Positions 1-31,571 of a stretch of 42,820 nucleotides of DNA are shown piece by piece. A model generated the notes under the pieces. The model made no database searches. It had not been told where the DNA came from and saw nothing but the letters and a program-made list of their open reading frames with translations. A program made the translations under genes and the position numbers. The stretch's first letter is position 1; every line of letters begins with the position of its first letter. The stretch comes from Kiritimatiellia bacterium. Its GTDB lineage: Bacteria > Verrucomicrobiota > Kiritimatiellia > RFP12 > UBA1067. The stretch spans positions 1-42,820 of the forward strand of contig JBGURT010000111.1 of assembly GCA_045132115.1 (NCBI GenBank), in the 5' to 3' direction.

Positions 1-1449
1 GTCGATCTTGTCCTTCCAGCCGCGGATCGTCACCTTGTCGCCTTCCCAGCTTTCGATCCAGATGCCGGGGTAGAGCGTGAGCGCCACGGTGCGCACCCTG
101 AGGACCGTCTTTTCGCGGTCGAAAAGCAGCATGCCGATCTTGTCGGCCTCTTCCTTGGCGGCGGCCACCGCCTTTTCGCCCGCCGTGATCTTGTTGGCGA
201 AACTCTTGTAGGAATTGACCTTGGCTTCGTTGCGCTCGAGATCCTCGGCAAGGACGCTGCTTTCCTTGTTGATGCCCAGAAGCACGCAAACAAGCGCCGC
301 GACCACCATGGCGCCGCCGGCGGCTACGAGAGGAATCTTCGCCTTTTCGGCCTTTGCCTCGAGAATCGCCGGCGGGATGAGATTGATGTCGAAAGGCCCG
401 GCCTTGATCATGTGCACGGCCACGCCGGAAGCCGAAGCGAGCAGTGCGGTGTCCGTGCCGAGCTGGTCGGCATCTACCGCGCCGCCAACGCCGATTCTGT
501 CGAACGGATTGAGGAATGCGACCTCGATGCCAAGATTTTCGGCGAAGAAAGTATCGATCTGCGGCAGGAGCGCGGTACCGCCGGTCAAGTAGAGTTTGGT
601 CGGGGCGGATCCGCCCTGCTGCGAACGGTAGAAGTTGACCGAGCGGCTGATTTCAGCATGGAGACGCGTAAGGACCGCGCGGCAGACCTTGGAGACGCGG
701 TCGGCCACTTCGTCTTCATCCTCGACGACGCCGCCCTGGCTCACATAGCCCTTTTCCATCTTCACCTGCTCGGCCTCGACCGCGCCCACGCCAAGCGCCT
801 GGCCGATGTCGCGGTTGATGTTGTTGCCGCCGATCGGGATCGTGCGGTTGTAGAGTTTTTCGCCCTCGGCGATGACGAGGCTCGTGGTCTTCGCGCCGAT
901 GTCGAGCATGATTACCGGGCTGCCGTCGTCGCCGTAGACGTAGCGCATGGTGTTCGTGGCGGCGATAGGCGCGACGTCGACGAGGACCGGATTGAACCCG
1001 AGTCCTGTGAGCGCCCCGGTGATGCCTTCGATCTGCTCGAGCTTGGCGGCGACGATCATCACCGACTTGTCGCCATCCTCGGTGTCGCCCAGGATCTGGC
1101 GGTCGCAGACCATCTCGTCGATCGGGAACGGGATGTTCTGCTCCACCTCGTAGCGCACCATCTGCTCGAACTTCTCCATGCCTCCGGCCATGGGGATCGC
1201 CGCGAAGCGCGGGAACACCATCTGTCCGGAAACGGACACGGCGACATCGCCGGGCTTGATGCCCTTCTCGCGCATGATCTCGCCGATCGCCGGCGAGAGA
1301 ATGGCGTCGGCGTTGCCGGAATCAAGCGGCGCGGCGAGCTGCGCAATCCCGTATTTGAGGAGCGTCAGCGAATCCTTGCCGCTTTGCTCGAACTCGGCAA
1401 GCGCGACGCGCGAGGCTCCTATGTCGAGAGTGAGAAGTTTCTTGCCCAT
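1..1449 (-). CDS. pilM: Type IV pilus assembly protein PilM fused to a PilN-like segment. The 3' end runs off the window, and the gene is absent from the ORF track because it has no stop in the window.
   Basis: The frame is open from the ATG at 1449 (plus-strand cat 1447-1449) to base 1, giving 483 codons without a stop. The translation starts MGKKLLTLDIGASRVALAEF and has an actin-like PilM/FtsA layout (MLDIGAKTTSLVI, LYLTGGTALLPQI). At aa 355-360 it carries INLIPP, which resembles the conserved PilN N-terminal peptide. This is followed by a TM helix (IPLVAAGGAMVVAALVCVLLGI) and a coiled-coil tail. Confidence 0.8.
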   Translation of the reverse strand, partial: MGKKLLTLDIGASRVALAEFEQSGKDSLTLLKYGIAQLAAPLDSGNADAILSPAIGEIMREKGIKPGDVAVSVSGQMVFPRFAAIPMAGGMEKFEQMVRYEVEQNIPFPIDEMVCDRQILGDTEDGDKSVMIVAAKLEQIEGITGALTGLGFNPVLVDVAPIAATNTMRYVYGDDGSPVIMLDIGAKTTSLVIAEGEKLYNRTIPIGGNNINRDIGQALGVGAVEAEQVKMEKGYVSQGGVVEDEDEVADRVSKVCRAVLTRLHAEISRSVNFYRSQQGGSAPTKLYLTGGTALLPQIDTFFAENLGIEVAFLNPFDRIGVGGAVDADQLGTDTALLASASGVAVHMIKAGPFDINLIPPAILEAKAEKAKIPLVAAGGAMVVAALVCVLLGINKESSVLAEDLERNEAKVNSYKSFANKITAGEKAVAAAKEEADKIGMLLFDREKTVLRVRTVALTLYPGIWIESWEGDKVTIRGWKDKID

Positions 1450-1476
1450 GGCGAATGTCCTTAACTTGGGGAAATG

Positions 1477-2193
1477 TTACTGGATTACGAGTTCGTAGTC
1501 GTTGGGGTTGACGAGCGCCCAGATCGTCTTGGAGCGGTCCTGCAGGCCCTGGCGGCGTTCGATCATCGGCTCGCCGCCCTGCTTGGCGTCCATGATGCTC
1601 GAATCTTCCCAGAATTTCTTGTGGGCATCGATGCCCTTGATTTCGCTCAAGGCATCGCCGGTTATCTCGTTGCCGCTGGAGTCGCTGATCACGAGGCCGA
1701 CGGCCTTGGGCTCGCCGTACTGCTCGAGATAGGAAGGATGCAGGCAGACGGAAGCGGCGTGGGTGCCGCGCGGAATATTGGCGTAGGTCACGGTCTGGGT
1801 GAAGTAGGAATAGGGCGGCATCTTGGCCTGGCCTTCCTTGTCCTTGGAGGTGGCGCTCTTAGTTTCAAGAAGGACGTGCCAGGTGAAGGTAAGCTGGTCG
1901 ATGCACTTGTCGGTCGTGGAATACTTGGACTCGAGGACGATCCAGTTGCGAGGCTTGCCGTTCCAGGCCTGGCCGATGACGGTGCCGCCGCTGACGCTGG
2001 GCGCGGAGAGAGTGGCCGCACGGCCGAGCTTGGGGTACTCGTCCACATGGACCTTAACCTTGGGACCGGAAGCGTCGTCGTCTTCGGCGGTTGCGGCGGC
2101 ACGGCGTCCGGTGCGCGTACGGGAGGCGGTGGGGGCGGCTTCGAGCGCGATCGCGCACACCGCGACAATTCCTGCAATCATCAATTTCTTCAT
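1477..2193 (-). CDS. Secreted hypothetical protein, 238 aa
   Basis: The ORF is complete and begins with a Sec-type signal peptide (MKKLMIAGIVAVCAIALEAAP). A purine-rich SD region (AAGCGAAAGAAAGGAACC) lies upstream. It sits 27 nt upstream of pilMN in the same orientation. I recognise no family. Confidence 0.6.
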   Translation of the reverse strand: MKKLMIAGIVAVCAIALEAAPTASRTRTGRRAAATAEDDDASGPKVKVHVDEYPKLGRAATLSAPSVSGGTVIGQAWNGKPRNWIVLESKYSTTDKCIDQLTFTWHVLLETKSATSKDKEGQAKMPPYSYFTQTVTYANIPRGTHAASVCLHPSYLEQYGEPKAVGLVISDSSGNEITGDALSEIKGIDAHKKFWEDSSIMDAKQGGEPMIERRQGLQDRSKTIWALVNPNDYELVIQ

Positions 2194-2217: not shown

Positions 2218-3207
2218 TTAAAGTACTTTCATTTTCGGCAGATCCTGAATGTCCACGAGCCCCACGGCGCGGCCGTCAGCGTCGCACACGGGAAGATCGT
2301 CGATGCGGCGCTTCTCGAAGATCTTGAGAAGTTCGGCGGCATAGACGTCATTGCGGACGAAGAGCGGATTCCTGGTCATGTAGTCCGAAATCGGCCGGGC
2401 CAGCACGGCCTGGCCATCGGACTCCTCGCTCATCACGCGGCGGAAGTCGCCATCGGTGAAGATGCCGAGGAGCTTGCCGTTCTCGCCGGTCACGACGGCA
2501 GAGCCGCTCTTCGCCTTGGTCATCGCCAGCAGCGTCTGGAGAACCGTAGCCTCCGGCGGCACGGCGGCAAACTTGTCGCCGGTGCGCATGATGTCGGTCA
2601 CGCGCATCACGAGCGCACGGCCGATCGCCCCGGCGGGATGGTTCATGGCGTACTCCTCGATCGCAAACTGCTGGCAATCGATCATCACCATCGCGAGCGC
2701 GTCGCCCATCGCCATGGTGGCGGTGGTGGAGTTCGTGGGCGCCATCCCGAACGGACACGCTTCCTTGCCGCAGGGAATCTCGATATGCACGTCCGAAAGC
2801 CGCGCGAGCGTAGACTCCGGATTGCGGGTCATGGAGATCACCTTGAGTCCATGGCGGCGGATCGCGGGGATGAGCCGGTTAACTTCGTCGGACTCGCCGC
2901 TGAAGGACAGCGCGATCAGCACGTCCTTGGCGCTCACCATCCCGAGATCCCCGTGCATCGCCTGCACGGGATTGAGCACGATCGAGCGCGTGCCGGTGGA
3001 GGAGAAGATCGCAGACATCTTCTCGGCGATGTGCAGGTTCTTCCCCACTCCGGTAACGACGACGATGCCGCCGTCCTTCTGGGAGGCGAGCATCATCTCG
3101 ATCGCCTTGACGAACGATGCACCGAGCGAGGCGGAGGTTTTCTTCAAACCTTCGATTTCAATGGCGAAGACTTCCTTCGCCCGCTCAAGCATTTTTTCGC
3201 TGGTCAT
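2218..3207 (-). CDS. kdsD: Arabinose-5-phosphate isomerase (KdsD/KpsF family; SIS domain plus tandem CBS)
   Basis: SIS motifs are present (VVVTGVGKNLHIAEK, MHGDLGMV, SFSGESDE, APTNSTTATMAMGDALA), as is a CBS pair (GIFTDGDFRR ... DDLPVCDADGRAVGLVDIQDL). I start it at MTSEKML (ATG at 3207), which overlaps the pta stop as ATGA. The 350-aa track ORF adds 21 implausible residues. Confidence 0.85.
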   Translation of the reverse strand: MTSEKMLERAKEVFAIEIEGLKKTSASLGASFVKAIEMMLASQKDGGIVVVTGVGKNLHIAEKMSAIFSSTGTRSIVLNPVQAMHGDLGMVSAKDVLIALSFSGESDEVNRLIPAIRRHGLKVISMTRNPESTLARLSDVHIEIPCGKEACPFGMAPTNSTTATMAMGDALAMVMIDCQQFAIEEYAMNHPAGAIGRALVMRVTDIMRTGDKFAAVPPEATVLQTLLAMTKAKSGSAVVTGENGKLLGIFTDGDFRRVMSEESDGQAVLARPISDYMTRNPLFVRNDVYAAELLKIFEKRRIDDLPVCDADGRAVGLVDIQDLPKMKVL

Positions 3208-4244
3208 CACTTGGTGGTGGACTGGAGCAAGGTTACGCAGATGGTTCCTACGATATCCTCGGCGCTGCAACCGCGCGAGAGATCGTTCATCGCCTTGGCG
3301 AGGCCCTGGAGGTTCGGGCCGATCGCATCCGCCTCGCCGAGGCGCTGGGCGATTTTGTAGCCGATGTTGCCCGCCTGGAGATCCGGGAAGATGAAGACGT
3401 TGGCATTGCCCTGGATTTCGCCGCCCGGGTTCTTGAGCTCGCCGACCGCCGGGACGATCGCGGCGTCAAACTGCATCTCGCCGTCCATCTTGATGCCCTT
3501 TTCGGCAAAGACGGGGCGGGCGAGCTCCACGGCCTTCTGCACCTTCTCGACGAGATCGCCGGCGGCGGATCCCTTGGTGGAGAAGGAGAGGTAGGCGACA
3601 CGCGGCTCGTTGCCGGTCAAATCGCGGTACGTCTGGGCGGTTGCAAGCCCGATATCGACGAGCTGCTCGGCCGTCGGGTTGGGGATGACGGCGCAGTCGC
3701 CGAACGCGAGCACCGAGTCGCCGGAAGGCGTGGGGCGCTTCAAATCCATGATAAAGCTCGAAGAAGCGGTCTTGACGCCCTTCTGGGTGCCGAGAGTATG
3801 GAATGCGGCGCGGAGCATATCGCCCGTGGAGGCGATGGAACCGGCGACAAGGCCGTTGACGCGGCCGAGCTTGACCATCATGCCGCCGAAGTAGATGCGC
3901 TTGGTGCGCAGAGTCTTTTGCGCGGCGGCGAGATCGATGATCTTCTGCTTTTCGGCGGGCTTGCGCGATTCCTTGGCGTTCCAGGCTTCGAGGTAGGCGG
4001 CTTCAAGCTCGGCATCGCCTTGAGTGTAGTCGATCGTCTTGATGCCGCGCTCCGCGAGCGAGAGGCCCGCCTTTTGTTCGGCGGCGGCGATTTCCTCGGC
4101 AGTGCCCAGCACCACGGGGGTGCAGATCTTGCGGTCCACGCAGGCGCAAGCGGCGGTGATGACGCGGGCGTCCATGCCCTCGGGGAGGACGATGGTGCCG
4201 TTGAGGGCGGAAGCTTTTTCGATGATTGTCTTGATCGCGTTCAT
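3207..4244 (-). CDS. pta: Phosphate acetyltransferase (short Pta form, 345 aa)
   Basis: The translation looks like Pta across its full length (IVLPEGMDARVI, GLVAGSIASTGDMLR, AFGDCAVIPNPTAEQL, LSFSTKGSA, FIFPDLQAGNIGYKIAQRL). It lies adjacent to ackA. Confidence 0.9.
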   Translation of the reverse strand: MNAIKTIIEKASALNGTIVLPEGMDARVITAACACVDRKICTPVVLGTAEEIAAAEQKAGLSLAERGIKTIDYTQGDAELEAAYLEAWNAKESRKPAEKQKIIDLAAAQKTLRTKRIYFGGMMVKLGRVNGLVAGSIASTGDMLRAAFHTLGTQKGVKTASSSFIMDLKRPTPSGDSVLAFGDCAVIPNPTAEQLVDIGLATAQTYRDLTGNEPRVAYLSFSTKGSAAGDLVEKVQKAVELARPVFAEKGIKMDGEMQFDAAIVPAVGELKNPGGEIQGNANVFIFPDLQAGNIGYKIAQRLGEADAIGPNLQGLAKAMNDLSRGCSAEDIVGTICVTLLQSTTK

Positions 4245-4280: not shown

Positions 4281-5417
4281 TCACCCCAAGACCCTTACCG
4301 TATCCTGGGCGATCATGAGCTCCTCGTTGGTGGGGAGGATGACGACCGGGATCTTGGAATCCTTGGTGGAGATGGTGGCAACCACTCCGCGGGACTTGGC
4401 GTTCGCCTTCTTGTCGAGCTTGATGCCCAGCGCACCAAGACGCTGGACGATGCGCTCGCGGCCCTCCGCCGAATTCTCGCCGATGCCGCCGGTGAGGATG
4501 ATCGCATCAGCCCCGCCGATCACGGTATTGTAGCCGCCGATGTACAGCGCCACGCGGTATGCCCACATTTCGAGCGCGAGTTCGGCATCTTTGCAGCCCT
4601 TGGCGGCATTCGTGCAAATGTCGCGCATGTCGCCGCCCTTCACGCCGCTGATCGCCTGCAGTCCGGACTGCTTGTTGAGGAGCGTATCCATCTCCGCCGG
4701 CGTTTTCTTTTCGCTTTCCATGATCGAGAGCACGGCGGCGGCATCGATATCGCCGCAACGGGTGCCCATCACGAGACCCGCAAGCGGGGTGAGCCCCATG
4801 GTAGTATCCACGCATTCGCCGTTCTTCACCGCCGCGAGCGAGGAGCCGTTGCCGAGATGGCAGGTGACGAGATTCACCTTTTCGACCGGCTTCTTGAGTA
4901 GCTTCGCCGCTTCCTTGACGATGAATTTGTGGCTCGTGCCGTGGAAACCGTATTTGCGGATTCCGTACTTCTTGTAGAACTTGGGATCGATCGCATACAG
5001 GGCCGAGCATTCGGGCATCGTCTGGTGGAAGGCGGTGTCGAACACGGCGACGTTGGGGACGCCCTTGAAGATCTTCTGGCACGCTTCGATGCCGCCAAGG
5101 TTGGCGGGCATGTGCAGCGGGCCGAACTTCACGAGCTTCTTGCACTTGGCCATGTTCTTGGCGTCCATCTTGACGGAGTCCTTGAAGACTTCGCCGCCAT
5201 GCAGAACACGGTGGCCGATGGCATCGATGTCCTTGGGATTGCCGAGATCGGCCACGACCTGCTTCAAAGCCTCGGCGTGGTTGGCGGGGCCGCCCGCGCC
5301 GATGCGCTCGACAAGACCCTTCGCCAGACGGGTGTTGGTCGTCATGTCGAAGAGCTGGTACTTGAGAGAACTCGATCCCGAATTTACTACGAGAACCTTG
5401 CGGATTTGCTTTTTCAT
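4281..5417 (-). CDS. ackA: Acetate kinase
   Basis: AckA motifs are present: VLVVNSGSSSLKYQLFD, GHRVLHGGE, YGFHGTSH, CHLGNGSS, GTRCGDID, LTGGIGENS. I start it at MKKQIRK (ATG 5417). The 428-aa track ORF extends it into the 3' end of the giant gene and is rejected. Confidence 0.9.
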   Translation of the reverse strand: MKKQIRKVLVVNSGSSSLKYQLFDMTTNTRLAKGLVERIGAGGPANHAEALKQVVADLGNPKDIDAIGHRVLHGGEVFKDSVKMDAKNMAKCKKLVKFGPLHMPANLGGIEACQKIFKGVPNVAVFDTAFHQTMPECSALYAIDPKFYKKYGIRKYGFHGTSHKFIVKEAAKLLKKPVEKVNLVTCHLGNGSSLAAVKNGECVDTTMGLTPLAGLVMGTRCGDIDAAAVLSIMESEKKTPAEMDTLLNKQSGLQAISGVKGGDMRDICTNAAKGCKDAELALEMWAYRVALYIGGYNTVIGGADAIILTGGIGENSAEGRERIVQRLGALGIKLDKKANAKSRGVVATISTKDSKIPVVILPTNEELMIAQDTVRVLG

Positions 5418-5439: not shown

Positions 5440-8400
5440 TTAGTGCGTGATCTCGATCTTGAAGAACTGGGCGTTGGTCGCCGCGGCCGGGAGCGGATAC
5501 TCGATAACGCCGCTGCTGGTGCCCACTTCAACCGTATCCTTGACCTCGGCCACGGTCCAGTCGGCATCGCCCAGATTCGCCTTGTAGAGAACCTTGACGT
5601 CGAACGAGACGGTTCCGCCTTCCACGACGTAGAACGCAGAAGCGGACGAACCGGCGGTCAATGTTTCGACTTCGCTCGTGTAGCCGATCTTGACGGATTT
5701 CGCCACAGTATCGATATCGAGCGAAGTGATGGCGATCACCGAAGAGTCGGCTATCGTCTCCGCGGCGGCCTTGGCCTCTTCGATCGTATCGTAGCCGAAC
5801 GTCAACGCGGCGATCTTGGGATTAGACAGCGTAGAGACGACCTGCGATGCCATCGCGACGGTGCTCGCTCCCGAGCCCGCGGCCGGGGCGGCGGCAAGCA
5901 GAACCGGAGCCATGCCGGAAGTCGCCGTTCCGGCGCCGCCGGCGGCGAGTGTAGCAAGATCCGTGCTGTAAATGAAGCCGATTCCCTCGCTGTCGGTCGT
6001 GATCGCATCGAGCGGCGTGTTCGTCCTCCAGCTTCCGTCCGCCTTCTGCGCGTCGCTCGCCTGAGCGTACTCGTAGGCGTCGGGCAGGCTGTTGCCGTTG
6101 GTGTCGGCGTCTTCGATGTAGATTTCGATCGAATCGCCTTCGCCGAGAACACCGGCGGAGTACTTGACTCCGGTCGGGTTGAACGGCACCGCGCCAATCA
6201 AGCCGCGGGCGCAGAGGTAGCCCATGGACTCCCAATCGTCGCACACGCCATTGTCGTTGGAGTCGATGAACGCGCGGAAGTAGTACGTTCCCGGCTCGAT
6301 ACCGACTATCGTGGCGTTGTCGGGCACCTCGCCGGCATCACCGAGCGTGGCGAGACCGGTCACATAGCCGGCCGCAACGGGTTCGCCGGTGAAGTCCGGC
6401 TTCGTGAACGCCTGCACCCGGATGGTGGCCGCATCAGCGGCGACCGGCCCGAAGTAGCGGACCTTCACGCCCTGGGTGCGCATCGCGATGTTGTTCTCGG
6501 CGACATTGAGGAGGAACTTGCCGCTGCCGCCATTTTCGTCGGTCTTGTACTTGGAGTTGTAGCCGTAGACCGTCCAGGTGTATTCCTTGTTGTTGGCGTA
6601 GACGCCATAGCCGTGTTCGCCGTCGATCTTGTCGCCCACGCAGATAGGCGCGGTCCAGACATATTCGCCCTCGGCATTCTCGAGCGGCATCTGCTGGAAG
6701 CCGGAGTTGTAGCTGAAGCCTTCTCCGGTCACGACGATCCTGAACGCGGTGTAGGTGCCGGCGCGCTTCGTCATCGTCCAGCGGAAAGTAGGCCGCGCGT
6801 CCGTGACGCGATAGCCCGCCTGCTCCGTGGGTTCGACCGCGACCGCCACCGAACGCATGCCTGCGGGATCGAAGGCCCTGATGAACGAATAGCGGGCGAC
6901 AGACACCGTATTGCTCAACGACGCCGTGGTGACCTTTTCGATATCCCCATTGCCGAACACTATGCGGTACACGACATCCCTGATATCGATATCGTCGCTG
7001 TTTTCGTCAACGATGCCTTCGGTATCGGCGGCGAGATCCCAGTCGATGTCGAACTTGCCGTTGCCCATGAACCAGCCCTCATGGATGAACTTGCCCAACT
7101 CGCCGGAGATATTGACAACACGATCGTCGACGACCTTGGTGGTGTCGTTGGCCGTGTAAGCCCTGCCGTTGTAGTAAGACCTGACGACCCTGACACGCAC
7201 GAATCTTCCAAAGCTGCCGGCTTCTTCGTAAGTGTCCTCGTCGAGGTTCTCGGACCACTTGCCCCAGGTGGCTTCGCGGTCGTTATCGCCGGTGACGAGG
7301 TCAGCGCGAACCGAGACGGGCGAGGTGCGGGTTAGCTGGATCGCGGCCGCGCCGCCCTTCCAGCCGATGTCCACGTCGCACGCGACACCCATAGGCTCGC
7401 CGGGCGTGTAGAGGCCGTCGCCGTCAGTATCGAGGATCGCGATAACCTGGCTCTTGCCTTCCTTGATCGCGCCCTTCGTCGCCTCGCCGAGATACACCGT
7501 GCGGGGCAGATCAGCAGACGGATTGACGTCATACACAACGCGGTAGGTATGCGCCTCCGCCGGCGTCTTCGCATTCGTGTCGCTGACCGACCAGATTGAC
7601 TTTCCGGCCAACGCGCCGAAGTCGAAGTCGTACTCGCCGGTGACGAGATTGATCGTGCCGAACTCGATGGTGAGCGCGTCGTTCATATACACCGTCGCGA
7701 TATCGCCATCGGTGCGGATAGACATTGTGGAGAGCGGATGATACTCGGAATCGGGCTTCACGATGTCTACCGTGTCTTTGCCGTAGTTGTAGTAATCCTC
7801 GAGATATTCGGCCTTGGTGCCGGTGCGGTAGACGTATTGCGTCTCGCCGTCGCTGTCGACATACGAGAGGCGCCAGCTGAACAGCGTGTTGTCCGGCGTA
7901 TAGGCATCTTCGATGACGATCGATTTCGCCTTGACGTTGCCGGGCGTGAGCGTGCCGACGGCGTGGCGGTTTTCCCACTTGCCGAGCACCTTGGCATACG
8001 CATTGGAAGTCGCCGCCGTCGAGGTGGAGTTGGTGCCGCCATCGACAATGAACTTCGCGTCGAATTCCGCGTTCGAACCGTTGCGCGTCACATAGACGAG
8101 CAGCTTGGAGTCTTCTACGTCGTGGATGTCGGCTTCGTTGTAGCTGACGGTGAGCGCAAGCGTGGGAACCGGGTGGTCGATTACCGTATCTTCCACCGTG
8201 TTCACATGCGACTTCCTGCTGCCGATTATCGGCTGGACCATCTGCGAATAGCGCGCCTCGCTCCTCATCGACCAGCCGTCGTCGTCAGCATCGGTGCCGG
8301 CGTCGTATTTGAGCCGTGTCGCGTAGTCGGACGCATACTGGTCTTCCCAGGAATCCTCGACTTGATCGTGGTCGGTGAAGATCTCGCCGACATACAGTTT

Positions 8401-11400
8401 GCCGATCTTGTAGAAGTAGTCGAGGCAATAGGTGTTGGCCGAATACGCATTGCGCGCGTCGAACTTCTTGCCGTCGACATCGAAGACTTCCGAGAGGAGG
8501 TATTCCGCATAGTTGGAGAGACCGTCGTTATCGTAGTCGTCCAGGCCATCGGAGCCCTTGATCATGTACCTGAGCGCAATCGCGTCGGAAATGCCGTCGT
8601 CGTCGGTATCGACCTGCCACGGATCGGTCGGATTGCTGCCGCGGTCGTATTCGTCGACCAGCGTAAGCTCGCCACCTACCGTCCTGGACTTGTCGCGAGC
8701 ATCCGCCGCGGTGATCCACGGCGAGATCTGCCAATCGGTCGTGGCCGTTCCTCTGGCCGCGCTTACGCCAGCCGGACCGAACATCGTGTAGAGTTCCCAG
8801 CCATCCGGGATGCCGTCGAGGTTGGTGTCGTTCGTTCCGGCCTTGAGAATGGCGGACGAAGCATCGGTCAGCCCGATCGCCGCGAAATACTTCTTCACGA
8901 GCGCCTTGTCAAGGTTGGTGAACTCCTTGGTGTTGACCGACGGATCCGCCACGGGATTGGCCGTGTTGGGATTGAATCCGTAGAGGTCGTAGACCTGGGC
9001 GTGCACAAACGCGATCGTGGCGTTATTCTCGACGCCGGTCACTCTCCACTTGGAGAGATCGCCGAACGCGGTCATATCGTCCGTACCGGCGCCCCAGACA
9101 AAGTCCGTATCGGTGCCGTATCTGTATACGGTCAGATACTTGCGCTCGACATCAAGCGTGTCGCCAGTTTCAAGGCCTTCGCCCGTCAACTCGGCCACAT
9201 AGCCGGTTTCTCCGGTCTCGTCATTTACCACCGTATACACATAGCCGCTCTGCTCGGCGTAAGCCATAACATCGCCAGCCACATACCTGCTAGCATCGGT
9301 CGGATCGGCAGGATCTGTACCCAAGTCAATTTCGTCGTCATCATTGATACCGTCATCGTCAGTATCGTCGTCGTTCGGATCGGCTCCATTATAGAAGTCT
9401 TCCTTGTAGTCATCATCCGTCGCCGCGGGATCGGAGTTGACAGAATACTTCACATAAAGCTCCCAGCCGTCCGGCAGGTCGTTGCCATTGGTATCGGTAT
9501 ACCAGCTCGTGAGATCGTATTCGGTTTCCGCACCAACGAGCGGCAGATACATCTTATCGGTGATATACTTGAGCCTCCTCGTGAACGCAACCGTATTGTT
9601 GCCGGCCGCGCTTGCCGCAACCTCGGAATCGTCTTCGCTGCCGGTGTCTTCGACAGCGGCTTCAATCGAATCGGGCACGAAGAATTTCGGCCTTGCCGTA
9701 GTCACGTCCCAACCGTACCAATCGTACACCGCCGAGTGGATGATCGTGGCCTCGGCCGTGATATAACTCTGGAACTCGCCCTGCGAGAGCGTTACCGTGG
9801 TGGGCACGCCAACGAAGAGTTCGTCGCCTACCATGAACGTCGTATAGAGATCTTGCGTCCCCGGTCTGACCGCGTAGGACGTCTTGGCGCCCGTTGTCTG
9901 GTCGGTGACGACCATAATCTGGACGTTGGTCTTCACATACGCGCACCAGTCTTCTTCGGTTACGCCGTTCCAGAACTCGTCAAGCTCCTCGACAGTCGCA
10001 CCGGCAATACCCATTGCCATCGCAAAAGCATTGTCGTATTCCGGAACTGCTTCAAGCGTTTCCGTGCCATACGCGCCCTCCGCAACCGCCTTCTTGTAGA
10101 GATAGTAGTCGTCGTACGGATCGTAGCCGCTCTTCACGGAATCCTGCGCCACCGCGTCGACGTAATCTATCGTCGCGTCAGCCTTCGAAGCCGCGTTCAC
10201 GTAGCGGATGTACAGCTCGTAGCCGTCCGCAACCTGATTGCCGTTCGAGTCCGTCACGTCCGCCCCAAGAGCCGCGTAGTCCGTTCCCGCACTCTCGTAG
10301 CTCGCAAGCGTGATCTTCTTCCAGATCATCGTGAACGGCACCGTGTTCGCTCCCTGGACGATCGTCGTCTCGGCGCCGTCCTCGCCCTCGGTCACCGTCG
10401 CGACGCCAGGCTTCGCCGTCGTCGGATCGAACCCGAAGAAGTCGTACACCGCAGAGTGGATCAACACCACGTCCGCCGCAACCCCTGTGTCATAAGCGTC
10501 TACCGTGTAGTCCTTCGTGCTCGAGCCTGTCACGATCAGCTGCCCGTTCACCTCCGTCGTCGTGTAGAGCACCTTGTTCGACGGATTGGCGACATACGTC
10601 ACGCCGCCGATGTCCACCGTGTGGAGTACGCCCTTCCAGTACGCCATAACGTCGTTCTCGGGCACCGCGAGCCAGTACGCCCTCAGCGTCTCTTCAGTGC
10701 CGTCCGCGTAGCCGCCGGCGACCGCCTCGGCGTTCTTGTACTCGGGCACCAGCGCAAGGTCGCCAACAAACAGACCCTCCGCAACCGCCTTCTTGTAGAG
10801 ATAGTAGTCGTCGTACGGATCGTAGGCAGCCTCGACGGTGTCGGCGAAACCTTGCTGAATGGTGGTCGTGTCGACCGGGAATGCCTTGGAAGTGTTGGCA
10901 GAGGCAAAGCCCATGTACAGCTCCCAGCCGTCGGGGAGTCCGTTGGCGTTGGAGTCGTAGAAGCCGGGCCTGTAAGTCGAAGCCGACCAAGTGCCGTTGG
11001 TATTCATCTCGACCTCGTTGGCAAGGCCGAACTCCTGGAGGTACTTCACGACGAGGTACTTGTCAAGCGCAGTGAACTCCTTGGTGTTCACGCCATACAC
11101 CGTATTCCCCTCGGACACAACGATTGCATTCGGATTGGCGGTGGTCGGGTCAAAGCCGAAGATATCGTAGACGCCACCATGAATCACGGTTACGGGGACT
11201 TCCTTCACGCTCGCAGCGACGATGCCTTCCGCGGGTGCACCCATTGCGAGCGCGCCGTTGTACATGAAGGTAGTGTAGTACTTGCCGGTTTCGCCGGGCT
11301 TGATGACATATTGCTTACCTTCAGCGGTCACGGCAACACTGAGGTTCGTGACGACATACGCCATCACGTCGCGCTCGCCAACATAGTCGGCGTCCCTGGT

Positions 11401-14400
11401 GAGCGGGTCGGTCTGGGCGAACTTGATTTCCCATCCGTCTGGCATGCCGTCGCCGTCGGAATCCCAGTTGTCGGCAATGGTGCCAAGCTCCGTTTCCTCG
11501 GCGTCCTTGAGACCATCGAGATCGGTGTCCTTGTCGGCGGCAGCGGCAGAGCCGGACTGCGTAGCGAAACAATCGAGTTCAAGGATGTCGGGGATTTCGT
11601 TCTGATTATAATCCGTATCCTCGATGAAGATCGCTATGGAGTTCGTCACGCTGAGGCTGTCGGGGACCTCCACCGCGCGCGGCGTATAGAGGAAGTCGGT
11701 CGCACGACCAATATTGTTGCCGTAACCCCAGGATTCCCAAGGCTCGAGCGTTCCATTGTTGTTGGAGTCGATAAACGCACGGAGGAACACCTTGCCAGCC
11801 TCGATACCGGCAATGGCAACATTGTTCGTTTCAATGCTGGACCTGACCTTGAGGTCTTCAACGGTCGAATCCATGCGGACACGAGCAAGCGGAAGTCCGG
11901 TGAAGTCTGCCGTGGCGAAGGCTTCAACAATGATGTTCGTCGGGTCGGCGATGCCAACCTCTCCGGGCCCGAAGTACCTGACGACTGCCGCCGCCTTGCC
12001 GTAACCCGTGGTAGTCTTGGGATGCGTGAGCGCATTCTCGACATCGATCGTGAACTCGCACCAATCGCTCCATGCAGAGTCGTCGATCGAAGCCCACTTC
12101 GCGTTCAAGAGCGCAACACGCCAATAGTAATTCGCGCCGTTCTTGAGAATTGTCGCGCCATTCGTCGGATTGGCGAAGCCTACATAGACGTCCGGCTGCA
12201 CGGCGAACGCCGACGGATCGCCGAGCGAAGCAGGCGTACGGCCAGGCAACATCTCGACCGGCGATTCCCAGACGGTATCAGATTCGTTCTTGCTGGTCGA
12301 AATCTGCAGCTTGTACGCCGTCATCGTCTGGTCTTCGGTGTTGAAGACGAACGTCGGGTGCGCCGAGTAGACGGGCGCGGTGTCAAGCGGAGATATCTGC
12401 TTGGCTATGGCGCGTGTCTGGTAGAACTCGCGGGTGAACGTATCCTTCACCTCGTCGTTCACGACTATCTCGTATGTCGCGGAGATGATCTCGTTCGTCG
12501 CGAGCCCCATCTTGACTGCATCCTTGACGAGCCATGCGAGGTCCAGATCGTATGCCGCCCCCGGGATGGCATCGGCCTCGGTGATGTAGGCGCGGTCGTC
12601 ATTCACGACCGTCTTCTTCATCACGATCCTGAGCGTGGACTTCTGGCCATTGATCTCCGTGCGGCGGACGACAACATCTGTCGTAAGTCCTTCCTCGACG
12701 GTCGCGGCATCAGTATTCTCCTCGTTGCCCGCACCTTCGTCACCGCTTGCGGTCGCGATGCGTTTGAAGACAGGCGAATCGTCCGTAAGTTCGATCACGA
12801 CGGGCTTGCCGGTCTTGTGCCAGCCGACTTCAACATCGCGCACATATCCGTAGGGTTCGCCGATGTCATAAGCGCCGTTTTCGTTAAGGTCTATAAACGC
12901 TTCTATAGTATTCTTGCCCTGACGCAAGAAACCGGAACCGCCGGCTACAGAAGCGTCGGAGAGCCAAAGCGTCTTAGGCCACCTGTCGGCAACATGATAA
13001 TAATATGTCGCGCGGATAACGTGATGGTCTAGATCCACTCCGGCATCAGTGATCGCGCCAAAGTCAAGTTCATATTCGCCGGTCGTGAAATCTATCTGAC
13101 CGACGACGGTCGCCGTCAAGTTTGAGGACGACAGATGAATCAACCCGTAATGGCCGTCGGCATCGCTCGACGTTTGCGCGAATATATCGTAAGTCTGCGA
13201 TACGGACACCACCTTTTCGGCCTCAATACCGTGCGCCGCCACATGCGCAAGATACTGCGAATATGTTCCTATGAATCTGAATCCGCCAGAAACCAACCTT
13301 TCAACAAAACTTTCATCGCCTACATGATTAGACAGTGCGCAATCCCAAATATATCGCGGCTCAGCATCAATGCGACGAGACTGGAACTTGATATCGCTAC
13401 CGGGAATGATATGGCCAGGATGCAGAATCCCGTGCGCCGTTGCTCCATTGACAAACGTGCCGAGCATGTGTGTCGCCTGCATGTCATCGTCGCTATTGGA
13501 TCCCTTGACAACAAATGTCGCGTCAACACGCTTCTTGTTCGCCGTGCTCGTTCTGACGACGAGAGAGGCGCCATTGATATCCTGCACGCCATAATACGTC
13601 GCCCTTACGCCGATTGCGGGCATAGGATGCGCCTCGTAATGATTGCTGCCGGTGCCGGCGTAATAGCCGTCGACAGCACTCGCGTTCATCCCGCCGTGCC
13701 AAGCGTAGGAGCGCGCTTCGGCGAAGTTGTCCCAGCTGTCTCCGTCCGTATCAAGGTGTGGATCGTACACATTCGGATTCGCATACGAGAGACCATACAA
13801 CACTTCCCACCAGGACTCCATGGAGTCATGGTCGCCAACCATCTCGCCAAGATACTCGGACTCGCGAACATGCTCTGCGTCAACAGCGGAAGACACAGGC
13901 GGCGCAAGGAAGTAATCCACTACAGCATCGCCCTTGGACCGCGCCTTGAGCGGATCGAATGCATAATCAACAACGCTGCGCAGATAGTAGCCATAAGGAG
14001 ACGGTCCGTAGCTGATCAACCATTCCTGATAATTCGTGAGGCCGTCATGGTCGGGGTCGTCGGTTGGCGCACAATCCTCCACGCCATAATATCTCTCCCA
14101 CCAATCGGGTATGCCATTCAGGTTGGCATCGACAGTAGAGACGTATGCCGGATTCGTAGTTCCGTCTGGCATCAAGCCCATCGAAAGCCAGAACGCATAC
14201 TTCTCGGGATCGCTGTAGTCTGGTCTCGCCCAATCAGGGGTGCCTGTATCTCCAGCGTCTCCGTCGAGCGCACCATCCTTCGTCGTAATCGCCCAGGCGT
14301 CTTCCGGACCTTGTCCATCCCAGTAATCGGCTTGGCGCTTGGCGAACGCCGAGCCGACGGGGACGAGATCGGAGTTTTCCCTGAACGAACGCAGATACCT

Positions 14401-17400
14401 GTACATGAACCTGGTGAAGACGGTATCGTTGGTAAGCGTGCTCGTCAAACCGGCCGTGGTTGCGTTTATGGCCGCATTCGTCTGGTTGTTGATCCTTGCG
14501 AACTTGTTCCACAGGTACTCGTCCTCGTAACTCCAAGTGCCCGACTGTCCCGCGTATGTCACATTGCCATAAGGATCCATCGTATTGTTGAACGCATACT
14601 GGTCTATACCATAGTGGTCGGTTGCCGGGGTGTAGCCGGCATAGTTCTCGCTCCAGTAGACACTGTCCTTGACCGTGCCGTCGAGACGCGGCAGGTGCGC
14701 CATCGTATCTTCAATCCACGGCACCACATGGCGAGAATTATACACCTCCGAAGCAAGCGGGGAGTCAGCAAGTTTCGCCCACCAGCCAATCTCCACGAGA
14801 TCGTCTACCGTTTCGCCGGTATCGGGACGGCGAACGACCGCGAGCACGTTCGCCGCGAATCCCGCCGGGACCTTCTGGACGTAAGCGGCATCCGTCGCGC
14901 CGGGAAGGGTCGTGAAATCATAGTGGTGCAGAAGTTCCGCCGGCAAAATCCTGCTCGCCGTCTGGTCGTTGCGGCGCGCGCCATTGTAGTAAGCTTCAAA
15001 CACCTCGAGGCGCTGGGCGGCGGCAAACTCGGGGGTAAAGCGGGTCTTGTAGGTGCTTTCCACTTGCGAAGCGGTTCTCGCGCCATCCCAAATGCGCACT
15101 TCGGCGACGCTACCCTTCAGGAAGTCCGTCGCAAGCTCCGCGATTTCCTCCTGGCCGGGATTCGAGCCCGCGTAGAAAATGTCCTTATCGGTAGGACGGC
15201 CGCCGATTACCGTGGCCGCGTACATCGCCTTGTACTCGGCCGCTTCGCCCATCAAGTGTTGCGGATCGAGTTTGATATCCTCCACGCCATTCGCGGGGAT
15301 GAGCGTAGTCTCCGTCGAGGAGCACTTAACACCATTGACATATATGGTCAATGTGGTGCCGTCGAAGGTGGCGGCAATATGCGCCCACTTGTTATCCACA
15401 AGTTCAGTGCCCTCGACACGGCAGAACACCTCGGTGGAATCCTGCATCTCGCCGAACGCCCTGCCCTCGGCATCGATGCCGATCGCAAAATTGAGCCGGA
15501 CTACATTATTCGAATTGATGAGATCCCAGCCCTGATAGTTGACGGCGCGGGTGACGACATACTTGTCGCCTGCGGCGGAGGCGTTCTCCGGGCGCACCCA
15601 GGCTTCTACCGTGAACTGTTTGAAGAGATCAATGCCGTGCGCGTGGCGCTTGTTAGGCGTCACGGTCATGGCCAAGCCGGGCTTCTCCGGACCGCCAAAC
15701 CAGATCGACTGGCGGCGCGAGGGATCGGCGAAGTTCTGCGGGTCGCTCGTGCCTTCCACCCCTTCTACCCCGCCAGACTGTTCAATCGAGTCGCTCCTCC
15801 AGTCGTTATCGGTATCGTAGCCTTCGTTCTCTTCGAACGATGCAATATAATCGTAGGCACCACTACCCCAGCCTCCGTCGGAGGCGTACATGTTAACCGG
15901 GAAGCTGGTAGCAATTCGTTCACCGTTTACATAATGGGATTTGGAATTCGCCGAAATGTCGTTCCCGTAGTAGAGCGCGGTGTAGGAGGGCTTGGTCACG
16001 AATTCAACACGGTCTTCGTCGTAGTTGACCACCTTGTTTGTGACCGTGAACCAAGTTGCACCGTCATCATTGGAGTCCCAAACCGGTTCGCCATCTTCAT
16101 CCACTTCCTCTTCGCTCGTGTAGATGTATTCACTGATGGTATCCACGGTGGAATCCGTCATCCAGAGCGGGGTCGGGTCGGTATGGGTCGCGCCGGGCGA
16201 AGTGACGTTCGCGAGCAGACACTCCTCGTAGTTCCTTATTCCGTCACCATCGGCATCGCACGCGGCCACGCCCATCATCCACGGGAACTTGATCGGGTCA
16301 TAGCCAGGTTCGGCACTATCGTCCCAGCCCGTCCACGCATTATTCCATGGTGTAACCAATCTACACGCCCTGCCGATGACATCCTTGGAGCTCACAGTAC
16401 CAGAGCTCATCGAGACTTCGCCAAGAATCGGGTTGAGGCCATGGAAAAGTTCGTAGTAGTCGTCCATGCCGTCGTCGTCAGTATCCCACAACCTCGGGTC
16501 GGTTCCGTAATAGAGCGGGACACCGCCGACCTTGGATGTTTCATGGTTGAGGCTCGAAAGGCGTTTTTCGACATGATCAACATCCGTCGACACCCTGGTG
16601 AGCTTTTTACTTTTGCCATCAATCATAGCGGAGTATCCGCCAGAGGACGTCTCTTTTACGGTGCCGGAAACGTTATTGGTGAACAGTCCTCCGCCGGGGT
16701 AACTGAATATGGCATTGCCATCTTCATCTGTTGCCCACTCATGGGAGGTATACGAATAAGTATATCTGGTGTACACCTGAACCGCCTCGCGCGGCAGCAT
16801 GTACTTGTTGTCGTAGTCGATGCGAGCGTGGTCCCAAGTCTTGGGCGGATCGGCGAAATAGCCAAGTTGTCCTAGGTAGTCGACGCCATTGTCGATGCAT
16901 TCGAGCGCCCAGTCGGCAAAGTTCTTGTAGCCGAGTTCATCCCTCACGTATTCAAGCTGGGCCTTGGTGTAGGGCCAGGTATAGCTCATCTTGAGGAAGC
17001 GGTTGTTGCCGTCTTCGCCTTCTGCGCACCAAGCGCCAGGCGTGACGGTATAACGAGGCAACGTAATCGTGCCGCTGCCGCTGCCGCTACCACCGATAAG
17101 GCTCACGAGCGGGCTGTCGCTGCCGATCAGCGGGGTCTTGTCGTCGTCGTAGCGGAACTGGCGCATGGCCTGCACCATGTATTCCTGCCAGTTCTGCAAT
17201 CCGTCGCCATCCCAGTCGACATCTTCTGCGCCGATGTAAGTGCCGGAGTGGGCGTCGGCAACAGTGCCGTCCATACCCATCATCACATGGTACACCCCTT
17301 CCCAATCATCGAGATTGCTTCCCATGACGGCTGTAATCTCGGCACGGATGTCGTCATAAAACGTTTCATTCGGCACCGACACTTCGAAGACGCGATAGGT

Positions 17401-20400
17401 ACCGTCGTATTCTTCATTTTCAAAATCCCCGTCCATCGGGATCTCGGCACCGCGGAAGAGCAAGCCGGCGAACTGGCGTTCCCACGGGTCGGGCAGACCG
17501 TCGAGGTCGGTATCGATCGTGCAGGGGTTGTAGCCGCCACCCCTGATGCAACGCGAACTATAGTTGGTGGGATTGCCGTAGATGGAGTAGTGCTTGACCG
17601 AGGCGGTTCTCAGCTGGGTTGATCCCCAGCGGTTGAATGTATAAACGCCATTCCATGCAGCACCTTCGAGGCCGTCCTTGATAAGGTCGCCGTCGGTATC
17701 GGGATTGCGCGGGTCGGTCGGGAAGAACTTGTTGAACCAGCCCCTGATCATGCTGCCCTTATTGCCTGGGAAATTCGCGTAAATTGAGGGGCAAGCTTCA
17801 TAATCGCCGCAAGTATCGTTACCCGCGTATTCGCCCACGAGCGTAAGTCCGTCTTCGTAATCTGCATTTTCGCCAATCGCCGGCCAAATGCCGTTGCCGT
17901 CCCAATAGCGCACGTCACGGCCGTCGCCACGGATCGTGAAGTCAATGTTCGGGTTCACGCCAATGTAGAGTTCCCAGCCGTCCGGCACGCCATCGCCATC
18001 GGTATCGGCACCATGCTGACGCTGTGCGAAAACGGTAGTGTCAGATCCCCATTTCAAATCTGCAAACGCGGCGTTCGGATTGGTGGTGCCGCCCTGGACA
18101 ATACCATAGATTGTGATCTTGTTGTCCTTGAGTTTCTGCTTATCATCCTTGATATCCCTCACTCCGGTGATATAGCGGTACTTGAGGAGCAGATATTCGT
18201 CGAGGGCCGTGAATTGGGCGGTATTCTGCGGCAAACCGGCTCTGTATATACCCTGACCAATCCAGCGACCGGTCGAACTGAGCGTGCCGTTTTCGCCAAC
18301 GTACCAACCGGTGCGGGGATCGAAACCAAAGTAGTTGTGCACCTGATGGTGGTAGAGCGAGACGGTGTTGGTCGCGATTCCGCTCGCCACGACCGCATCA
18401 AACTCTCTGGCGGCAACATTGCCGCTGCGGTTAATGAAGTCGGCAGTATCCTCGGTAGGCAATATCCAGCCATCCTTGAACTTGAACACCTGGAAGCCAT
18501 CGCCAGCCACTTTCACTGTATTGGTCGTGGGATCGATCCAAGCAGCCTCCACAAAGGTCGCCTCCTCGCTGTTCGAGAGCATCCAGTACGTTCCGTCGCT
18601 CGCTTCGTATACATACGTGTACGGCGCGAAGTCGGGCAGCTTGAGATTCTCCGGGTCGGCAAAAGAACCGTCGGCCTTATGCGAATCGTGCACAAACGCC
18701 ATGAAGTCGCCGTCAAGATTCATAGCACCGTTTTGGTACTGGCCGCCCGAAAGCGGATTTACGTTGTAGATTACCTCATAGAGATCGCTCAAGCCGTCAC
18801 CATCCGAATCCCAATGCACCGGGCTCGTGCCGATAAGGAACTCCTCGAGGTCGTAGATGCCGTCGTTATCGGTATCCTGATGGGTCCAGGTGCGGTTGAT
18901 ATTCGGGTTGTAGATGCCCGCAATGGTTTCGGGCGTGATAATGTCCTCGCGGCTTTCGATGTCATCCAAATTGAACTTGTAGCCGGTGAGACGGTTTTTG
19001 CCTTCCGTACCCACCACGGCGTCGTACCAGATGAAGTATTCGTAGCCGTCGGGCATGCCGTCGCCATCGGTATCGTCGATCATCGGGTCGGTGCGGTTTT
19101 CGCACGTCCAGCCCCAGGTTCCGGCTTCTGCATAGTGGCGCCATGTAAGGTCGATAAAGTGCTTGGCGGCCTGCTGCTGCCGGCCTGTGAGACCTGCTAC
19201 GAGCAAATTCCCATCAAGCCATTCGCCAAAGTTGATATCGTCGAGCGTGATGGTGTCGGCCGGGTTCATGTCGCCGAGTTCCGTGATCGCATGGGTCACA
19301 GTATTGCTCTTCGAATAGAGCGACGACGCACCCCTGAGGATATTTGTGACGAAGGCGCCTTCAGGCGTACCATCATCATAATGCACAATCCACCGGTTAA
19401 CCGTGATGCCAGGGTAGTTTTCATCCTCTACGTCACACTCCCAATGCGCGTCCTGATCGTACACGTAGCACGTTTGAATCACAGGGTTCATGGCAGTAGA
19501 GCCGCTACGGATTACCGAGGCGAGGATATTCGTGACCGCAATCCAGTCAGTGCCGTCGTATGTGCCTGCACGACCTGTGTAGCGACGATTCAAGATATTG
19601 TCGCGAGTCTCAAGGACGAGGCGCATCAAAGAGCGCTTTTCGTTATCGGTAAGCGAGAGAGTGGAAATCCATCCCGCCTCGCTCTCGCTCCTCGCCATGG
19701 CTCCGGTATGGTACGCGCGGAACATGCCATAGTTCAGACCGTCGCCGAGACCGCGGATTTCCCTGAAGGCGGTAAAGGCCTGACCGGCCGTCGCCCAACT
19801 GTTGGAGGAGCCGGGCACGATCGTCGAACGCCCAAGTTGCGAAGTGGAGGGCAGGAAGTCATTGTCGTCGTTTCTGGCGTTTACCGCGCCAAGTTCGCCG
19901 CCCGCGCCGTCGGTCTTGGCGAGCGTCGCATTGTTCGCATAAGTCTTGATTGCAAAGATATCCGGAATACCGTCGTGATCGATATCGCCCATATTGTCGA
20001 ACTGGTCATATTCGGCCGAGAATATGGCCTCGATAAAGGTGGGCACATAACCGTTGCCGTCATCGGTCTTTGCCGTAGGCAGAATGAAGTCTGCCACTTC
20101 CGCGGTGTTGGTACCGATTACCGGCGCGACGCGGATAGAATAGTCCGATCCGCCCGGTTCGGAAGCACTTATCCAGCCGTAGAAGAAGCTGTCGTACATG
20201 GACTTGTATTCGTACGGATCGCTAATCACGGTCGTGGAAGATTCCCTGCTGCCGGATTTGTCTATCGCCCAGTCTCTCTTGCGGTCAAGGTTTCCATCGT
20301 CCTTGGCGCCAGACTGATACCCGAACGCATAGAGGCTGACGGAATTGAGCGTGCCGCAGTTCCAGGTGATATTGAAGCTTTCGGCCGACGCCGGCAACAC

Positions 20401-23949: not shown

Positions 23950-24342
23950 TTACTTAGAGATTCTCTGTCTGATCATTTCCCGCGAACGGGCCGCCTGTGC
24001 TTCGATCGCCGCGTTGGCGTTCTCGCACTGCTTGTACAAATCGTTCCAAACCGGATTTTTCTCGAGCTCGGCCTTGATCGCTTCGTCGGTCGCGCCGGGC
24101 ATCTGCGCCTTCATGTCGTCAATCATCTTCTCCATTTCCGCGACAACCATGGCGCGTCCGCGCATGAGATTGCCGCGCTCGGCGATGGCGGCATCGATCT
24201 GCGCACGATATACGGGGTCTTCAAGACGGTTCTCGACCCCGGAACCCTGCGGCTCCTGCTCTTCATCGCGGCTGCAACCGGTCCATACGGCCGCGCAAAC
24301 CGCCGCCGCCAAACAAAATCCCGTTATTCTCTTCATCGTCAT
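23950..24342 (-). CDS. Small predicted lipoprotein, 130 aa, helical, function unknown
   Basis: I start it at MTMKRITGFCLAAAVCAAVWTGC. It has a signal peptide and a lipobox-like WTGC, followed by a charged, helix-prone sequence. The ATG at 24340-24342 overlaps the TGA (24339-24341) of the upstream 2.4k-aa gene as ATGA. Its stop lies 12 nt before the giant gene ATG. The 158-aa track ORF is an upstream extension. Confidence 0.7.
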   Translation of the reverse strand: MTMKRITGFCLAAAVCAAVWTGCSRDEEQEPQGSGVENRLEDPVYRAQIDAAIAERGNLMRGRAMVVAEMEKMIDDMKAQMPGATDEAIKAELEKNPVWNDLYKQCENANAAIEAQAARSREMIRQRISK

Positions 24343-31529: not shown

Positions 31530-31542
31530 ACTACTGTCAGAT

Positions 31543-31571
31543 ATGATACCAAAAATTTCCGCATAAGTCAA
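31543..31571 (-). promoter_or_regulatory. Sigma70-type promoter of the giant-gene unit: TTGACT - 17 nt - TATCAT
   Basis: The minus strand reads TTGACTTATGCGGAAATTTTTGGTATCAT. The -35 is at 31566-31571 and the -10 at 31543-31548, with TGG immediately upstream of the -10 (extended -10-like). It lies in an AT-rich island within a GC-rich genome and is the only sizeable intergenic gap upstream of the giant module. Confidence 0.7.

Follow-up and report, generated by a model that had tools for sequence, protein, structure and literature searches.

What is the domain that is repeated four times in tandem within one giant gene of a Kiritimatiellia bacterium, and what keeps a short motif constant in it while its surroundings drift? 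The repeats lie on contig JBGURT010000111.1 (assembly GCA_045132115.1), of which we analysed positions 1 to 42,820, referred to below as the window. A single open reading frame (ORF) of 6165 amino acids on the minus strand (5440-23937) holds all the copies, including a fifth one far upstream of the array. The domain is real and recurrent, its pattern of conservation holds, its fold is predicted with confidence, and it has no named relative. It is a new, unnamed domain family inside a known kind of protein, namely a giant, TSP3-rich, secreted and probably surface-located fibre. As to its role, we see about an even chance that the module serves as a scaffold domain, stabilised by Ca2+ and bearing variable loops, within a fast-evolving surface fibre.

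The four tandem units, which a sequence-only reading of the window had recognised, were confirmed by BLASTP between the copies (E 4e-13 to 1.5e-27, 31-38% identity) and by independent metagenomic relatives. All are on the minus strand and of a short type, which we call type A: M1 (10903-11382, amino acids 4186-4345), M2 (10168-10665, 4425-4590), M3 (9412-9963, 4659-4842) and M4 (8776-9285, 4885-5054), together spanning amino acids 4186-5054. Their cores are HGGVYDIFGFDPTTA (11137-11181), HSAVYDFFGFDPTTA (10414-10458), HSAVYDWYGWDVTTA (9694-9738) and HAQVYDLYGFNPNTA (8959-9003), and their Ca-type loops are DSNANGLPDGWELY (10915-10956), DSNGNQVADGYELY (10210-10251), DTNGNDLPDGWELY (9454-9495) and DTNLDGIPDGWELY (8788-8829). 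The diverged upstream copy proposed for the same gene proved, by profile, to be a full one: M0 (17953-18720, minus strand, amino acids 1740-1995) is of a long type B, with its core at 18307-18351 and its loop, DTDGDGVPDGWELY, at 17965-18006, and it carries FGFDPRTGW ... RW ... TNPN ... HGADTDGDG. A profile search of the giant protein returned exactly these five full copies, at 140-195 bits each; compared with M1, the other copies show 29-39% identity.

A regular-expression scan of the translation located D[VW][MC]AY at nucleotides 11370, 10653, 9951 and 9273, giving periods of 717, 702 and 678 nucleotides. The first three starts and the first two periods had been read correctly from the letters, and the last start and period (9272 and 679) were one base off. 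Further along each unit, H..VYD.[FY]G[FW][DN] begins at 11181, 10458, 9738 and 9003, and NT..FT at 11088, 10347, 9597 and 8934; the loops of M1-M4 follow the pattern D.N.[ND][GQD]..DG[WY]ELY. The earlier figure of about 230 residues per module describes the repeat period (226-239 amino acids), but this includes a linker of 43-79 residues, and the folded module itself measures 160-184 residues (256 in the upstream copy). Two motifs attributed to every tandem copy turned out to be less general: YTTF is exact in two of the four (YTTF, YTTT, YTTF and none), and FT..DK.LV.KY fits M1 and M4 only. The core is likewise less strict than had been thought, with HSAVYDWYGWDVTTA and HAQVYDLYGFNPNTA deviating from it, but its H, V, G and T are kept. 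Tandem Repeats Finder reported no nucleotide-level tandem array; at the level of DNA the repeats are old, apart from one 64-nucleotide linker element described below.

A profile built from the five copies and searched widely recovered relatives in which the motif did not dissolve. In a word-indexed protein search it retrieved six metagenomic fragments, the best at E 6e-26, that share the motifs; this kind of search yields short metagenome fragments only (six with the five-copy profile, five with a 47-sequence profile), not giant proteins. An 11-sequence profile was then scored exhaustively against 1.84 billion representative proteins and matched 583 of them at E <= 0.001, 297 at E <= 1e-10 and 101 at E <= 1e-30, the giant protein of the window being among them. 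Nearly all of the 150 matches listed are 4000-7700 amino acids long. The true core is present in 151 of the 154 proteins examined; two of the others match through TSP3 repeats only, and one is a fragment that starts past the core. A one-genome-per-species scan added eight loci, each a giant ORF with 2-6 core motifs, in six rumen metagenome-assembled genomes (MAGs) of the RUG series, one 'uncultured Verrucomicrobia' MAG and one Kiritimatiellia MAG. Judged by these loci, the family belongs to Kiritimatiellia of rumen and gut; the scan used a three-sequence alignment with narrow patterns and reaches close relatives only, so that the missing cultured Kiritimatiellota carry no meaning. We found no description of the domain, or of such giant proteins in Kiritimatiellota, in the literature. 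Viral collections held no relative either (no locus in IMG/VR, no fold match in BFVD), and with both empty a phage tail-fibre origin was rejected.

Both types recur across the family in a regular arrangement. Type B, with FGFDPRTAW ... RW ... TNPN ... HGADTDGDG, accounts for 100 of 219 aligned modules; nearly every member carries one, mostly around amino acids 1600-2100, and where both types are present it precedes type A. Type A occupies the C-terminal part of the protein, usually with one copy per super-repeat of about 1000 residues. The number of modules differs between relatives. Tandem type-A arrays occur in few of them, and the window protein is the sole full-length one seen with four. 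Signal peptides are found throughout the family, and the window protein fits its definition: a secreted protein in the 4000-7700-residue class, with type B at about amino acids 1600-2100, type A towards the C-terminus and conserved neighbours (synteny with two relatives, L009 and L010). The two types also differ at their starts: type B opens with a near-invariant N-x-D-G-D-x-M-A (18694-18720 in the window) and type A with (D)G-D-V-M-A-Y.

Conservation was measured in the 219 modules after alignment to the 47-sequence profile; residues are numbered as in M1, and adding 4185 gives the position in the giant protein. The modules share only about 22-40% identity overall, and the segments between the anchors vary widely in length (59-141, 20-85 and 25-117 residues). 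Against this background, four motif islands stand out with an entropy of 1.0-2.0 bits, versus 3.0-3.2 bits between them. The core contains H68 (100%), Q70 (81%), V71 (98%), G76 (97%), F/Y77 (99%) and T81 (90%); the M1 codon of the invariant His, residue 4253 of the protein, was located by motif scan at 11179-11181. Further along come T100 (93%), T104 (84%) and D107 (88%). In the tail, D143, D/N147 and D151 reach 100%, W153 and Y156 98%, D/N145 96%, E154 90% and G148 88%. The motif is kept in both types, and the idea of a conserved core in drifting surroundings thus survives the addition of homologues. Some positions are looser: M1-M3 have G or A in place of Q70, and the DP of FGFDP is found in 130 of the 219 modules and NP in 24, leaving about 30% without D/N-P, among them M3 (WDV).

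We compared the module with domain libraries and with solved structures. Pfam, run on 47 separate modules at E <= 1, matched TSP3_bac on the tail of 10 of them plus single chance matches, and left the core unmatched. NCBIfam gave no match on the modules, and a sequence-profile search of the PDB gave no worthwhile match to the module. AlphaFold2 predicted M1, from the 47-sequence alignment, as a single compact unit with a mean predicted local distance difference test score (pLDDT) of 94.5 and a predicted template-modelling score (pTM) of 0.88, with 140 of its 160 residues at pLDDT >= 90. M0, predicted from 28 type-B sequences (pLDDT 82.9, pTM 0.83), is likewise one compact unit and has the same order of elements with insertions. 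In the M1 model strands run over residues 6-18, 24-27, 35-41, 44-51 and 58-67, followed by a helix (69-75), a small hairpin and a strand (100-102); the C-terminal part consists of helices 105-117 and 123-129, a loop and helix 151-158. Foldseek found no counterpart in the PDB for M1 (best E 0.35, TM score 0.22) or for M0 (best E 0.73). The earlier statement that no named domain fits the module is therefore upheld by Pfam, NCBIfam, the PDB profile search and Foldseek on the two models. The structure comparison covered the PDB and BFVD, and the predicted fold is one without a solved relative rather than one proven to be new.

The tail is the part of the module that does resemble something known, as the sequence-only reading had noted in calling it TSP3-like. 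Its residues are spaced 1-3-5-6-9-12: positions 1, 3, 5 and 9 hold acidic or amide residues, position 6 holds Gly and position 12 Glu, and a helix follows. Ca2+ loops of the EF-hand and TSP3 types are spaced in this way, and the acidic loop pattern of TSP3, D-x-D-x-D-G-x-x-D-x-x-E, is met across the 219 modules. TSP3_bac (PF18884) matches at a best E of 1.6e-4 among the 10 modules mentioned above, and the tail of M0 passes the gathering score of that family (25 bits), scoring 45.7 bits for a 2000-residue piece with its best stretch at amino acids 1978-1997. The PF18884 model has 22 positions and covers about 20 of the module's 160-256 residues; the repeat does not account for the whole unit. 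By sequence, the nearest solved loops are those of the Ca-binding region of binary-toxin B components (DTDRDGIPDEWE and DTDGDSIPDMWE) and of the TSP3 repeats in an OmpA-family protein, a likeness at motif level only (E > 0.1 throughout). The acidic half-loop with which the modules open, just ahead of strand one, may join the TSP3 repeat before it to make up a full Ca2+ site.

How might such a unit work? In type A, an N-terminal strand starting from (D)G-D-V-M-A-Y leads into a five-stranded beta region of variable sequence and length, which is followed in the predicted build by a conserved helical layer bearing H-x-Q-V-Y-D-x-F-G-F-D-P-x-T-A and N-T-x-x-F-T-x-x-D-K-Y-L-x-x-K-Y, and then by a closing loop and helix, D-x-[DN]-x-[DN]-G-x-P-D-G-W-E-L-Y, of the bacterial TSP3 type. 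We propose that the giant protein is exported by the Sec pathway and that, outside the cell, the loop binds Ca2+. Binding would fix the DGWELY helix, whose Trp, Leu and Tyr would pack on the aromatic residues of the helical layer and so lock the domain. The conserved islands would then be mainly scaffold (helix caps, hydrophobic core and Ca site), with the invariant His at the strand-helix junction probably buttressing the arrangement, and the beta-hairpin region and two loops, which vary freely, would form an exposed and possibly adhesive face. The domain would thereby serve as a rigid block of a fast-evolving surface fibre of Kiritimatiellia in gut and rumen, amplified in the window to four tandem copies between super-repeats.

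Two lines of evidence lead us to favour this account. First, the motif reads mostly as scaffold because, in the M1 model, T104-x-x-D107 falls at the N-terminus of helix 105-117, a capping-box position, G76 directly follows helix 69-75, a C-cap position, and the rest of the conserved set consists mostly of aromatic or aliphatic residues on helices. These placements were read from the secondary-structure string of the model. The sequence-only reading had been right that the motif is conserved and unassignable, but its preference for a functional site over a spacer finds less favour, as much of the motif is predicted to sit at positions that determine structure. Second, a surface fibre is favoured because of the signal peptides, the LamG, PKD and TSP3 domains, the varying copy number and the very fast divergence. 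That the loop binds Ca2+, that the protein lies on the cell surface, that the domain acts as scaffold or adhesive and that the His plays the part proposed are all inferences.

Several observations weigh against the scaffold account. M1, when scanned alone, matches no Pfam family at E <= 1 (0 families). The loops of M1-M3 read D-x-N-x-N, with Asn at the third and fifth loop positions, and in M2 the Gly is replaced by Gln; judging from these substitutions, the M1-M3 loops may bind Ca2+ weakly or no longer. A residue with a purely structural role would not usually stay invariant through 219 diverged copies as this His does, nor is His a ligand of Ca2+, and H68, at the strand-helix junction of the M1 model, is the sole conserved residue there without an obvious structural reason. 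The packing proposed for W153 and Y156, and the surroundings of H68, are likewise taken from the predicted secondary-structure string only. Surface location and adhesion are suggested by analogy with other giant proteins that have TSP3, LamG and PKD domains, and no anchoring mechanism was identified for the giant protein.

The scaffold account explains the invariant His poorly, and for that reason we retain, as a tentative alternative, the possibility that the H..VYD.FGFDP.TA / NT..FT..D cluster is a functional site with the His as its key residue, be it a glycan or ligand pocket, a transition-metal site or a catalytic centre. Besides the His itself, at 100% in 219 modules, the cluster offers the polar residues T81, T100, T104, D107 and Q70, and it persists in types A and B; there being no PDB counterpart, no structural precedent speaks against a new site. 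However, the His stands single, with no other conserved His, Cys or Glu metal ligand outside the Ca-type loop, and Q70, as noted, gives way to G or A in all tandem copies but one. T104/D107 and G76 sit where helix caps are expected, and the occurrence of up to five copies per protein, and of one per super-repeat of about 1000 residues, is the pattern of a structural repeat. No enzyme or carbohydrate-binding module family was matched. In its boldest form, a new fold with a new active site around the invariant His beside a Ca2+ switch (for instance a self-cleaving or self-cross-linking unit triggered by Ca2+, or a lectin or enzyme site repeated along a surface fibre), the idea appears unlikely. 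Were it true, it would represent an undescribed way for gut Kiritimatiellia to assemble, anchor or remodel an extracellular protein of several thousand residues.

We consider it quite improbable that the module is a Ca2+-triggered self-processing or cross-linking unit in which the Asp-Pro (or Asn-Pro) of FGFDP is the scissile bond, whether the outcome would be a cut fibre or a reactive anhydride that cross-links the fibre to the envelope. The precedents are the self-processing module of FrpC and ApxIVA, which cleaves at Asp-Pro, and the autocatalytic GDPH sites of mucins. With these the module shares a conserved Asp-Pro in a secreted protein that has a Ca-type loop; helix 69-75 leads straight into the conserved loop that holds the D-P, and DP or NP occurs in the 130 and 24 modules counted above. 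On the other hand, the roughly 30% of modules that lack D/N-P include M3, the D-P is internal, in the middle of the fold instead of at a module boundary, and neither sequence nor fold matches any solved structure, hence any deposited self-processing module; no homology to the precedents was detected. An FrpC-type module was set aside because the D-P found here is neither invariant nor at a boundary and because the PDB held no sequence or fold match.

It is barely credible that a long spacer attached to a degenerate or elaborated TSP3 repeat is all there is to the module, or that a GC-rich region has produced it as an artefact of low complexity or of an antisense ORF, even though its sole library match is TSP3_bac on the tail and long ORFs such as 7738-13032 run on the opposite strand, since of its 160 or more residues TSP3 spans about 20, the other 140 or so are predicted to fold confidently as one unit and are conserved in hundreds of proteins, there is no nucleotide tandem repeat, and it is the minus-strand frame that has the homologues, Pfam domains and signal peptide.

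Among known systems, the giant TSP3 surface proteins MtsD and CglD of Myxococcus are similar in that the last 20 or so residues of the module are TSP3-type and the host protein is secreted, huge and studded with TSP3. They differ in having no counterpart of the module core of about 140 residues. The NCBIfam models for MtsD and CglD match TSP3 stretches of the giant protein at 22.7 and 15.7 bits, far below the cut-offs of 800 and 400, and membership in either family was rejected on that ground. A second likeness is to the Ca-binding region of binary-toxin B components and anthrax protective antigen (PF03495, described as a Ca-binding domain; PDB 2j42 C2-II and 6sms Vip1Ac), whose loops DTDRDGIPDEWE and DTDGDSIPDMWE are nearly the same as the module's DTDGDGVPDGWE. 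This resemblance remains at the level of the motif (E 0.07-1.1), and by Foldseek the surrounding fold is unrelated.

The giant adhesins of Gram-negative bacteria, such as LapA and MpIBP, contain BIg or RTX-adhesin extender domains, which are all-beta, Ig-like, rigidified by Ca2+ and repeated tens of times. The module is comparable as a small domain present in many copies in a protein of several thousand residues, each copy probably being stabilised by Ca2+ after export. In contrast to these extenders it is alpha/beta in the model, occurs in 1-5 copies and is interleaved with super-repeats of about 1000 residues, and there is no similarity in sequence or fold. Ester-bond and isopeptide adhesin domains (Cpe0147-like) are all-beta and Ig-like, and conserved Thr, Gln and His/Asp residues form their cross-link. 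A domain of this kind was rejected, the predicted fold being alpha/beta with four helices, the Gln being G or A in M1-M3 and Foldseek having returned no match. A dockerin was rejected as well, on the grounds that each module has one loop-helix, not two tandem 22-residue segments, and that no Pfam dockerin match was obtained.

Outside the modules, the giant protein (minus strand, 5440-23937) begins with a Sec-type signal peptide, MKMKFLTSVLAAAFAGIASA, and contains many TSP3-like DxDxDG loops. Pfam, run on the whole protein in three 2000-residue pieces at E <= 0.01, recognised only TSP3_bac, a PKD domain (nucleotides 20578-20772, minus strand) and a Laminin_G_3 domain (15304-15624, minus strand), none of which covers the module core. 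The extreme C-terminus, …AQFFKIEITH (5446-5481 in the window), fits the motif G-F-[FY]-K-[VI]-E-[VI], which closes most full-length members of the family at their very end and could be a sorting or anchoring signal of some kind. Long ORFs of 952-1764 codons also run antisense to the giant gene on the plus strand (7738-13032, 13135-16875 and 18013-20871). These ORFs found no support and probably do not code, being shadows cast by the GC content and codon bias of the giant gene; we accepted the minus-strand frame as coding because homologues, Pfam domains and signal peptide are all in that frame.

Internal repeats were sought by BLASTP of 300-residue windows of the giant protein, a whole-protein self-comparison having given only the identity match. 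Two copies of a super-repeat of about 1000 residues, 26-33% identical, flank the tandem array: the first (11473-14430, minus strand, amino acids 3170-4155) is directly N-terminal of the modules, and the second (5944-8934, minus strand, amino acids 5002-5998) begins inside M4. Relatives have one to three such units, each with one type-A module, and Pfam gave no match to the super-repeat domains. Within the array, a 64-nucleotide direct repeat occurs in the M1-M2 linker (10775-10838, minus strand) and again in the M2-M3 linker (10076-10139, minus strand), both copies encoding the same 17-residue peptide, YDPYDDYYLYKKAVAEG. The copies are 91% identical, with about 51 nucleotides exact, whereas the flanking modules are only about 35% identical at the protein level, which suggests local gene conversion or an unusually strong constraint on the linker.

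The giant gene is preceded by two genes on the same strand. The large one (24339-31571, minus strand) encodes 2410 amino acids with no Pfam or NCBIfam match and has homologues at the same position in the two relatives L009 and L010. The small one (23950-24342, minus strand) encodes a lipoprotein-like product of about 130 residues (…AAVWTGCS) with a helical charged tail, counted from Met-29 of a 158-codon ORF that follows directly on the stop of the large gene; its position too is conserved in the relatives. On the other side lie ackA (4284-5417), pta (3210-4244) and a gene for an SIS/CBS protein (2221-3192), all on the minus strand. The order large, small, giant, ackA, pta, SIS/CBS, Amuc_1102-like, PilM_2 is kept in the window and in both relatives. 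Identity among the large proteins is 27-31% over 1200-1900 residues, and the small protein of the window aligns with that of L010 only, at 28% identity. The large and small proteins may be partners of the giant one.

The contrast in divergence across this region is sharp. Compared with L009 (16978-22581), the neighbours are 83% (ackA), 93% (pta), 78% (SIS/CBS), 60% (Amuc_1102-like) and 61% (PilM) identical, whereas the giant protein is 38% identical to its L009 counterpart over amino acids 1-3378, with a length gap of about 1900 residues; the L009 protein has neither the tandem array nor the second super-repeat. Evolution is thus far faster in the giant gene than around it, as one would expect if the product is a surface protein that is exposed and diversifying.

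Most rumen and hindgut Kiritimatiellia have yet to be cultured. To this setting the analysis contributes a domain family that is found in hundreds of proteins, has a confident predicted fold with no Pfam, NCBIfam or PDB counterpart, and is marked by an invariant His and a Ca-type loop. It sits in the conserved cassette of large, small and giant genes, of which the giant member diverges much faster than the adjoining housekeeping genes. At 160 residues the module is an expressible target for structure determination and for Ca2+ and ligand binding; it merits a new Pfam entry and can serve as a marker for tracking variation in the surface proteins of this lineage. A specialist would find it unsurprising unless the invariant His marks an active site, in which case the interest would be much greater.

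At the far edge of the window are an Amuc_1102-like gene (1480-2193, minus strand), which Pfam did not recognise and which was identified through its 60% identity to the L009 gene, and a PilM_2 gene (1-1449, minus strand) that runs off the window end. An Akkermansia-type pilus-like cluster thus begins here (1-2193, minus strand), and in L009 it continues with Amuc_1100 and a 1204-residue protein.

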